Assembly (NCBI GenBank): GCA_951406725.2
Contig: OX597820.1
Coordinates: forward strand, 52,948,001 to 53,012,000
DNA length: 64,000 nucleotides
Source of the DNA: Octopus vulgaris
Taxonomy: Eukaryota
Direction: 5' to 3'
The translations under genes were made by a program, and so were the position numbers. Every line of letters begins with the position of its first letter. Within the stretch, counting starts at the first letter, position 1. Below, in pieces: positions 3,501-4,782 of this stretch. The notes beneath the pieces were generated by a model that was not told the DNA's origin, searched no databases, and saw only the letters and a program-made list of their open reading frames with translations.

Positions 3501-3553
<53 letters not shown>

Positions 3554-3849
3554 GGTTATCAGTAATAATATAGGGTGAAATTAATTAATTTGGAATAATC
3601 ATTAATTACACCAAGTAGATTTCGGCATGTAAAAGCCTCATTCGAGGTAAGTTTAAGTAATACTAAGTAATTAAGGGTTTAGCAACGAATTGCCTCACCA
3701 CACACCGAATTTAGAAATAGCAGTCAAAGAGTTATAGCTATTCTTTCTACTAAAAGGGAGATCTCAGTAAAAACACAGCACTTGAAAGGCAAACACAGAC
3801 AGGTAAGAGAGAATGAAATGCCGGCAATCTATCATACAATTTTAAGTCA

Positions 3850-3941
3850 CCTACGGACGTACGTTTCGAAATTAAGTTTTTAGGAAAGCATAAGAATTAG
3901 ATAATTATGTCTTACCCAACTTCTTTTCTCATCAGCGTAGG
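3850..3941 (-). ncRNA. Type I hammerhead ribozyme (copy 1)
   Basis: Reverse complement of 4501-4592: CCUACG-CUGAUGA-long stem II-GAAA-CGUACG-UC-CGUAGG. Confidence 0.85.
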
Positions 3942-4500
3942 ACACTACAATTATGAATAATTGTATATTAAATTTCGAGATACTAGAAGGCATCATCTCA
4001 ACTCAGTATCAGAGCGAGCTAAAGCCGTTACCAGTATCACCAAATTCAAAGTGTGAATGAAAGTTTGTGTCACCAACCCCTTCCCACCAGCGTGTAGCCA
4101 AGACAAGATGCTGTGGTCATTTACTGGGATGTGATTGCTATTTCTAAATTCGGTGTGTGGTGAGGCAATTCGTTGCTAAACCCTTAATTACTTAGTATTA
4201 CTTAAACTTTCCTCGAATGAGGCTTTTACATGCCGAAATCTACTTGGTGTAATTAATGATTATTCCAAATTAATTAATTTCACCCTATATTATTACTGAT
4301 AACCATATTTCATCCCAGTAAATGACCACAGCATCTTGTCTTGGCTACACGCTGGTGGGAAGGGGTTGGTGACACAAACTTTCATTCACACTTTGAATTT
4401 GGTGATACTGGTAACGGCTTTAGCTCGCTCTGATACTGAGTTGAGATGATGCCTTCTAGTATCTCGAAATTTAATATACAATTATTCATAATTGTAGTGT

Positions 4501-4592
4501 CCTACGCTGATGAGAAAAGAAGTTGGGTAAGACATAATTATCTAATTCTTATGCTTTCCTAAAAACTTAATTTCGAAACGTACGTCCGTAGG
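4501..4592 (+). ncRNA. Type I hammerhead ribozyme (copy 2)
   Basis: Stem I CCTACG(4501-4506)/CGTAGG(4587-4592); core CTGATGA(4507-4513); stem II GAAA..AAGTT...AACTT..TTTC(4514-4574); GAAA(4575-4578); minimal palindromic stem III ACGTACGT; GUC cleavage triplet ending at 4586. Confidence 0.85.
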
Positions 4593-4778
4593 TGACTTAA
4601 AATTGTATGATAGATTGCCGTCATTTCATTCTCTCTAACCTGTCTGTGTTTGCCTTTCAAGTGCTGTGTTTTTACTGAGATCTCCCTTTTAGTAGAAAGA
4701 ATAGCTATAACTCTTTGACTGCTATTTCTAAATTCGGTGTGTGGTGAGGCAATTCGTTGCTAAACCCTTAATTACTTA

Positions 4779-4782
<4 letters not shown>

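Follow-up and report, generated by a model that had tools for sequence, protein, structure and literature searches.

The element studied here is a non-coding, hammerhead-bearing unit of 584 nt that belongs to a real, young and dispersed repeat family, the copies of which terminate at two fixed 3' ends, one short and one long. In two-arm insertions these ends occur almost strictly as a pair, which is the "tail" signature of Penelope-like elements (PLEs). The two divergent copies at the present locus were very probably produced by a PLE that primed at two sites, from both sides of a break in a TA tract, on RNA of one and the same haplotype. Judged by its sequence, the unit has every feature by which a retrozyme is recognised, and it appears to behave as a non-autonomous PLE; the element class and the link between retrozymes and PLEs have already been proposed in print. 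A retrozyme-like family had been suspected in an earlier note on this DNA, and this description is borne out by one hammerhead per unit, the lack of an ORF, a low G + C content and, at some loci, tandem copies with two ribozymes.

The window (the whole stretch of 64,000 nucleotides that was analysed) contains the element as two arms (Table 1). Numbering within the unit is given as u, with u1 at position 4132. The unit itself, U, spans positions 4132–4715 and has a G + C content of 35.6% and a longest stop-free frame of 66 amino acids. The arms differ internally at three positions (3821/4621, 3805/4637 and 3648/4210) and additionally by T/C at 4135, four bases off centre; the earlier reading of two divergent, ORF-less arms with about three substitutions thus agrees in coordinates, mismatches and lack of an ORF. 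The three internal differences are confined to this locus, and both arms carry the same two subfamily letters, which indicates that the insertion is very young. The outer ends of both arms meet (TA)n via TAT/ATA, as had been noted before, and correspond to the two fixed 3' ends of the family, u67 on the right (short, S) and u177 on the left (long, L), so that the tail lies on the left. The centre of the locus is a near-perfect palindrome of 472 nt.

Table 1. Features of the inserted element and its flanks (positions in the window).
Feature	Positions	Strand	Basis
Left (TA)n/(TACA)n microsatellite tract, insertion target	3486..3549	.	sequence
Left arm, 582 nt, u180–584 then u1–177, terminating at the long (L) 3' end	3550..4131	-	arm alignment
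110-nt tail (u68–177), at the left outer end only	3550..3659	-	472-nt inverted arms stop at 3660; end classes
Type I hammerhead motif, left arm; predicted cut between 3856 and 3855	3850..3941	-	core letters and pairing
Blunt central junction, 5' ends of the arms meeting, u180 against u1	4131..4132	.	
Right arm, 651 nt, u1–584 then u1–67, terminating at the short (S) 3' end	4132..4782	+	arm alignment
Structured terminal domain with both fixed 3' end sites; predicted RT recognition/initiation region	4149..4308	+	conserved fold
Type I hammerhead motif, right arm; GUC cut predicted after 4586	4501..4592	+	core letters, pairing, compensatory changes
Right (TA)n tract	4783..4854	.	

Other repeats were also seen in the window. 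A MITE-like element at 2545–3037 has 125-nt inverted arms that are 92% alike and short internal 29-nt repeats, and a piece of about 105 nt of another repeat, with a CTGATGA half-core on the minus strand, lies between TA tracts at 4845–4950 and is possibly the end of another PLE-type element. A degenerate PLE RT/endonuclease remnant, 25–38% identical to Neptune-like proteins, is located on the minus strand at 53584–54868.

One hammerhead per arm had been proposed, and the CTGATGA core is indeed present at 4507 (plus strand) and at 3935 (minus strand). The motif of the right arm consists of a 6-bp helix I, the CUGAUGA core at 4507–4513 and GAAA at 4575–4578, a long helix II (60-nt region) with G10.1-C11.1 present, and a helix III of 2 bp with a palindromic loop. 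A hammerhead was not detected here by Rfam, neither at the gathering threshold nor at E values up to 10, and the assignment therefore rests on the core letters, the helix pairing and compensatory changes. The latter affect two of the six helix I pairs in a sister family, where the palindromic loop is likewise kept by compensatory changes. The motif fits the canonical metazoan type I hammerhead, for which efficient cleavage reportedly depends on dimer formation (PMC4209133, available text), and the 2-bp palindromic helix III likewise predicts that the ribozyme of the unit acts as a dimer.

A 26-mer from the ribozyme core has 385 exact matches in the genome and a 29-mer from the 3' domain has 351, with 0 matches for the reversed control in each case; the repetition of the unit is thus not due to chance. 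A first sample comprised 79 loci taken from among the first 100 core matches listed (contigs C1–C3, with nine on C4) plus a 10-unit array, and a second sample added further loci from the first 100 matches of the 3' domain. The median divergence from the column majority was 2.3% (151 arms of the sampled loci), in keeping with the young multicopy family that had been postulated. The sister family is 69% identical and has a unit of approximately 592–594 nt, and older relatives exist too. It was seen, for example, at L188:660–1680 and L186:1007–2064, with the same S/L ends and compensatory ribozyme changes, and at L384:950–1600 (L177) three of its terminal domains occur by themselves with a period of about 197 nt, separated by (TA)n, the ribozyme being absent. 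In the 10-unit array (L110:2298–8012) two unit types alternate as a higher-order dimer repeat with a canonical L end and TA flanks; this array was considered as evidence of rolling-circle copying and rejected, as an alternating dimer repeat is best read as local amplification.

The S and L sites are located about 110 nt apart, the former at u47–76 (mostly 67) and the latter at u140–177 (mostly 170 or 177). At the 79 sampled loci, 115 outer 3' ends were classified as S (n = 69; u47–73, 52 of them at u67), L (n = 39; u144–177) or other (n = 7), and 105 of the 115 were joined to (TA)n, in which a target-site duplication would not be discernible; 5' ends were scattered. Among 106 arms anchored on the 3' domain, 5' ends did not accumulate at the cut site, nor after exactly one round. 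The earlier description of circularly permuted copies hence holds for the free 5' ends, but not for the 3' ends, which are fixed at two paired sites; the outer ends at the present locus, u67 and u177, are these family-wide sites and not arbitrary opening points. The TAT microhomology noted earlier does not by itself determine where the arms end either, since the unit contains 26 TAT/ATA sites.

The combination of the two end classes is almost invariant. Two-arm loci of the first sample (n = 36) comprised 30 with S+L, none with S+S or L+L, and 6 with an unclassified end (binomial p ~1e-9), whereas single-arm copies ended at S in 36 cases, at L in 5 and elsewhere in 1. Newly fetched two-arm loci (n = 29), read with an anchor one base off the 3'-domain pattern, showed the same trend (25 S+L, 1 L+L, 3 other), and all 77 two-arm insertions among 149 clusters, a set that includes a few older relatives, were distributed as 65 S+L, 1 S+S, 1 L+L and 10 other. 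The rule is thus followed by 65 of the 67 classifiable insertions and broken by two, and with the ends lying at (TA)n this corroborates the earlier proposal of arms primed outward from both sides of a TA break. The sister family has identical end sites, and 18 of 19 second arms at loci selected on their L end terminate at S. Apart from the tail at one end only, the unit family shows 5' truncation, partial tandem copies and an inverted 5'-adjacent copy. The terminal domain containing both end sites folds into a three-way junction and a hairpin that are conserved across 12 relatives, with 29 pairs, 96% of cells paired and 5 of the 29 pairs changed on both sides. In a shuffle test the paired cells exceeded those of all 500 shuffles and the pair count that of all but 39 of 500, the structure being derived from the same alignment that was used to score it.

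Information on the RNA template was obtained from the 54 of the 106 3'-domain-anchored arms that reach the ribozyme cut. The cut is crossed by 53 of these arms, and one stops within 5 nt of it; eight arms contain two consecutive crossings, while the arms of the window hold one ribozyme each. A cleaved linear monomer is therefore not the template, which must be multimeric or circular because the arms cross the cut site, in agreement with what had been proposed. Arms of the same locus differ by 0.95% as compared to 3.4% between loci (46 loci), and tandem rounds by 0.9% as compared to 3.1% (44 arms). At common polymorphic columns, arms agree in 438 of 446 calls (187 disagreements expected at random) and rounds in 424 of 426 (179 expected), giving 862 concordant calls out of 872, and 44 haplotypes occur among 59 full-unit arms. 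Locus-private changes are mostly unshared, both between arms (47 versus 5 shared) and between rounds (58 versus 7 shared), and later gene conversion thus explains the agreement poorly. At the sequence level, this pattern favours the monomer as the unit of inheritance, as would be expected from a circle or from an intramolecular template jump. That the template is a circular RNA appears evenly balanced between true and false. The unit folded as a circle shows self-pairing with a z of −5.4 against 30 shuffles, pairs that a linear multimer could form too.

The main alternative leaves the PLE mechanism unchanged and assumes that the template is always a linear, uncleaved multimer from homogeneous tandem loci, with the ribozyme as a passenger and no circle; it is a serious possibility, albeit one we consider somewhat improbable. 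Tandem sources exist, such as the 10-unit array and a 3-unit arm, and the self-paired fold is equally open to a linear multimer. Furthermore, PAc, the Poseidon PLE of Anolis, used mainly unprocessed RNA as substrate in vitro, and mutating the ribozyme left insertion unaffected (Frangieh et al., 2024; PMC11167929, available text), which counts against a needed circle. However, with this diversity of haplotypes, almost complete concordance of rounds and rare variants that are common to the rounds (19 rare, 7 private), each source would need repeated homogenisation to a single unit, and the mostly unshared private changes indicate that conversion is not erasing such differences. Compensatory changes that preserve helix I and the palindromic loop of the sister family also speak against a mere passenger role.

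For the preferred reading, PLE-driven priming at two sites, the following course of events can be envisaged. A multi-unit locus would be transcribed and cut by the predicted dimeric ribozyme, and the monomer would be re-ligated, or the RT would jump back on the monomer. The PLE protein would bind the structured terminal domain and nick both strands of the TA repeats, whereupon one 3' end would prime at S and the other at L, as in an asymmetric complex with two active sites. Joining of the two truncated cDNAs, with little or no microhomology, would yield the divergent palindrome, one side of which carries the 110-nt tail, and a single priming event, usually at S, would give a plain 5'-truncated copy. 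A stricter version, in which a PLE dimer on a single circular, ribozyme-made RNA primes both strands of the break with obligate S versus L active sites and rolling-circle copying, is tentative and rather doubtful. If it were true, every multimer and every inverted arm would be a rolling-circle product, in the unit and in the 3.3–3.6-kb Hydra elements alike, and the 584-nt unit would be a minimal natural substrate recognised by fold and not by sequence.

Alternatively, the second arm could result from fold-back DNA synthesis on the first cDNA or from L1-style twin priming, which is improbable. In 6 of 63 simple two-arm loci, as compared to 1.4 in permutations (p 0.002), the start points of the arms are no more than 5 nt apart, an excess that is compatible with a common RNA end or with occasional fold-back. 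However, neither arm contains the other, and hence neither can have served as DNA template for it, in 24 of the 63 loci including that of the window, and the second arm ends at a fixed site and not at a variable internal one. Fold-back is thus disfavoured as the general route and may explain a minority of loci with a perfect palindromic centre.

Candidate helper PLEs are present in the same genome. One Neptune-like family encodes 781 aa with RT and GIY-YIG domains and is young and intact, and at least four Hydra-type families that are young, intact and abundant have ORFs of 727–1091 aa (about 1090, 980, 899 and 727 aa; L284–L303, L304–L323, L324–L353 and L379–L383). The Hydra-type families target (TA)n and possess type I hammerheads, those of H1–H3 having a long helix II, and their end sites lie 35/155, 60–67/220 or 37/108 nt after the cut, corresponding to tails of 71–155 nt. 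By hand count, 22 of 24 two-arm insertions of these autonomous elements pair S with L, a pattern that is in line with the PLE mobiliser suggested earlier. Their multimers reach 12.5 kb, in an array of 3.5 units, and one two-arm insertion holds 1.7 units in each arm, the units being 99.9% identical. Read by eye, the H1 and H2 translations contain DKT, an RWK-type motif, a CxCX5C linker, and CxxC and CxH around E and N; a public protein search with a local PLE protein returned unnamed relatives at 29–44% and one Octopus-labelled partial match at 70%, which makes an octopus the probable host. Neptune-like families also target (TA)n, with a tail near 30 nt in one insertion read by eye. At L141–L143, L144 and L237, the 781-aa family was seen to have an atypical hammerhead-like core and a further ORF upstream, and a second young Neptune-like family has a tail near 30 nt.

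No DNA is shared between the unit and any of the autonomous families tested (Neptune-like, H1, H2, H3, H5 and one old family), for which 150 of 6136–18509 first-look candidates per search were scored. Local alignments of the unit to PLE families gave z values of 1.3 or less, as opposed to 32.7 for the sister family, and where the unit or a relative occurred near a PLE copy, it was as an insertion of its own in an adjacent TA tract. Which PLE, and of which clade, acts as helper can thus be deduced from behaviour only. The unit's tail of 103–110 nt resembles those of Hydra elements and favours a Hydra-clade PLE, which on this comparison is probably, though by no means certainly, the helper. A hint of five Hydra N-terminal codons retained just after the L end of the sister family was discarded as too short and post hoc.

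A further possibility is that the copies are 5'-truncated ends of an autonomous PLE not found so far, of which the unit would be no more than the terminus (pLTR). Fixed 3' ends and a tail are PLE features, and the genome contains many PLE families of which only part were sampled; the earlier note had named copies that share fixed ends and are simply such termini as a refutation. The 3' ends of the sampled copies are indeed fixed, but they were not found as the termini of an autonomous PLE among the families sampled. Long arms re-enter the same 584-nt unit for up to three rounds and never enter an ORF, and the suggested check for an attached PLE ORF revealed none on the same strand upstream of 71 single-strand insertions (up to 2 kb, some flanks being shorter). 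The four protein matches in these flanks were all on the opposite strand, and no two of the 71 insertions share a junction flank. The terminus explanation is accordingly very improbable. An assembly fold-back artefact, which, like a single-copy unit, had been named as a possible refutation and to which the palindromic centre would be suited, is practically negligible given the 385 core matches, arms opening at different points with three private differences, unmirrored outer flanks and 77 independent two-arm insertions obeying one rule.

Non-LTR retrozymes have been described together with their circles, and PLEs have been put forward as their candidate mobilisers (Cervera and de la Pena, 2020; PMC7229834), and a PLE origin of non-LTR retrozymes has been argued in a survey whose available text samples no mollusc (Li et al., 2026; bioRxiv 10.64898/2026.07.22.740005). 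As far as the accessible parts of these two sources show, the unit resembles metazoan non-LTR retrozymes in being a non-coding repeat of less than 45% G + C with one type I hammerhead per unit, in ranging from monomers to multimers, in its predicted self-paired circle and in its co-occurrence with PLEs. Its 584 nt fall inside the 51–972 bp range of the 2026 survey but exceed the demonstrated 170–400-nt circles of 2020. In contrast to those retrozymes, most of its copies are monomers truncated at the 5' end or inverted pairs, inserted in (TA)n, and its fixed S/L ends and tail are without counterpart in the published description consulted. In Xenopus, 21 of 57 retrozyme families match a host PLE, whereas the unit lacks pLTR homology to a host PLE among the families sampled; eight of nine Xenopus retrozyme dimers showed no cleavage in vitro (bioRxiv 10.64898/2026.07.22.740005, available text).

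The available text of Craig et al. (2021; PMC8557442) describes PLEs as targeting (TA)n and as having inverted arms truncated at the 5' end and a tail of 30–40 bp, which is frequently confined to one end, and File S1 of that paper already lists an octopus Hydra family, Hydra-1_Obim. The unit shares with these Hydra-clade PLEs the (TA)n target, the canonical hammerhead, the one-end tail, and the partial tandem with an inverted 5'-truncated arm. It is not itself a Hydra element, though working like one, as it lacks an ORF. Its tail, like those of the local Hydra-type families, is far longer than the one described, and its S end lies 196 nt after the cut as compared to 35–67 nt in the local families. 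Non-autonomous Chlamys PLEs such as MRC1 (PMC8557442) are likewise ORF-less, pLTR-forming and multicopy head-to-tail in microsatellites; most of these, however, have no hammerhead, and as a rule their 3' sequence is also found in an autonomous family. In PAc as well, RT starts at two sites inside a structured RNA and thereby defines the tail, and the protein, for which a dimer is predicted, cuts and extends both strands of AT-rich DNA (PMC11167929, available text). In vitro, PAc used its start sites alike on both strands, in contrast to the near-strict S+L pairing of the genomic insertions seen here.

The origin of tandem and inverted PLE insertions, and the role of hammerhead circles as a possible transposition intermediate, are open questions in the available text of the literature (PMC8557442, PMC11167929, PMC4209133), where circles have been proposed as templates for more-than-unit PLE cDNA (PMC4209133). 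Insertion by insertion, the 584-nt family provides evidence that a retrozyme-type unit owes its spread to PLE machinery and not just to satellite amplification. A tail reported qualitatively as often one-sided becomes here a near-strict S+L rule with a common haplotype. A short substrate and young, intact candidate enzymes make this a directly testable system. A description of the family or a quantified S+L rule was not found in the literature searched, though Repbase/Dfam and the supplements of the retrozyme papers may hold one, and the ribozyme 12-mer is absent from the supplement of PMC8557442.

Assembled contigs of four sequencing runs guessed to be RNA cover 29–30 of 30 bins of the unit and some enter (TA)n, a coverage that does not show strand, ends, level or circles. 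Near-identical sequence is present in runs under three other organism codes, and the family may predate or cross related species. An unrelated non-coding tandem unit of about 480 nt, likewise hammerhead-bearing and located in (TA)n, was seen at L221:3700–4680 (minus strand) and L046:2770–3140 (plus strand).
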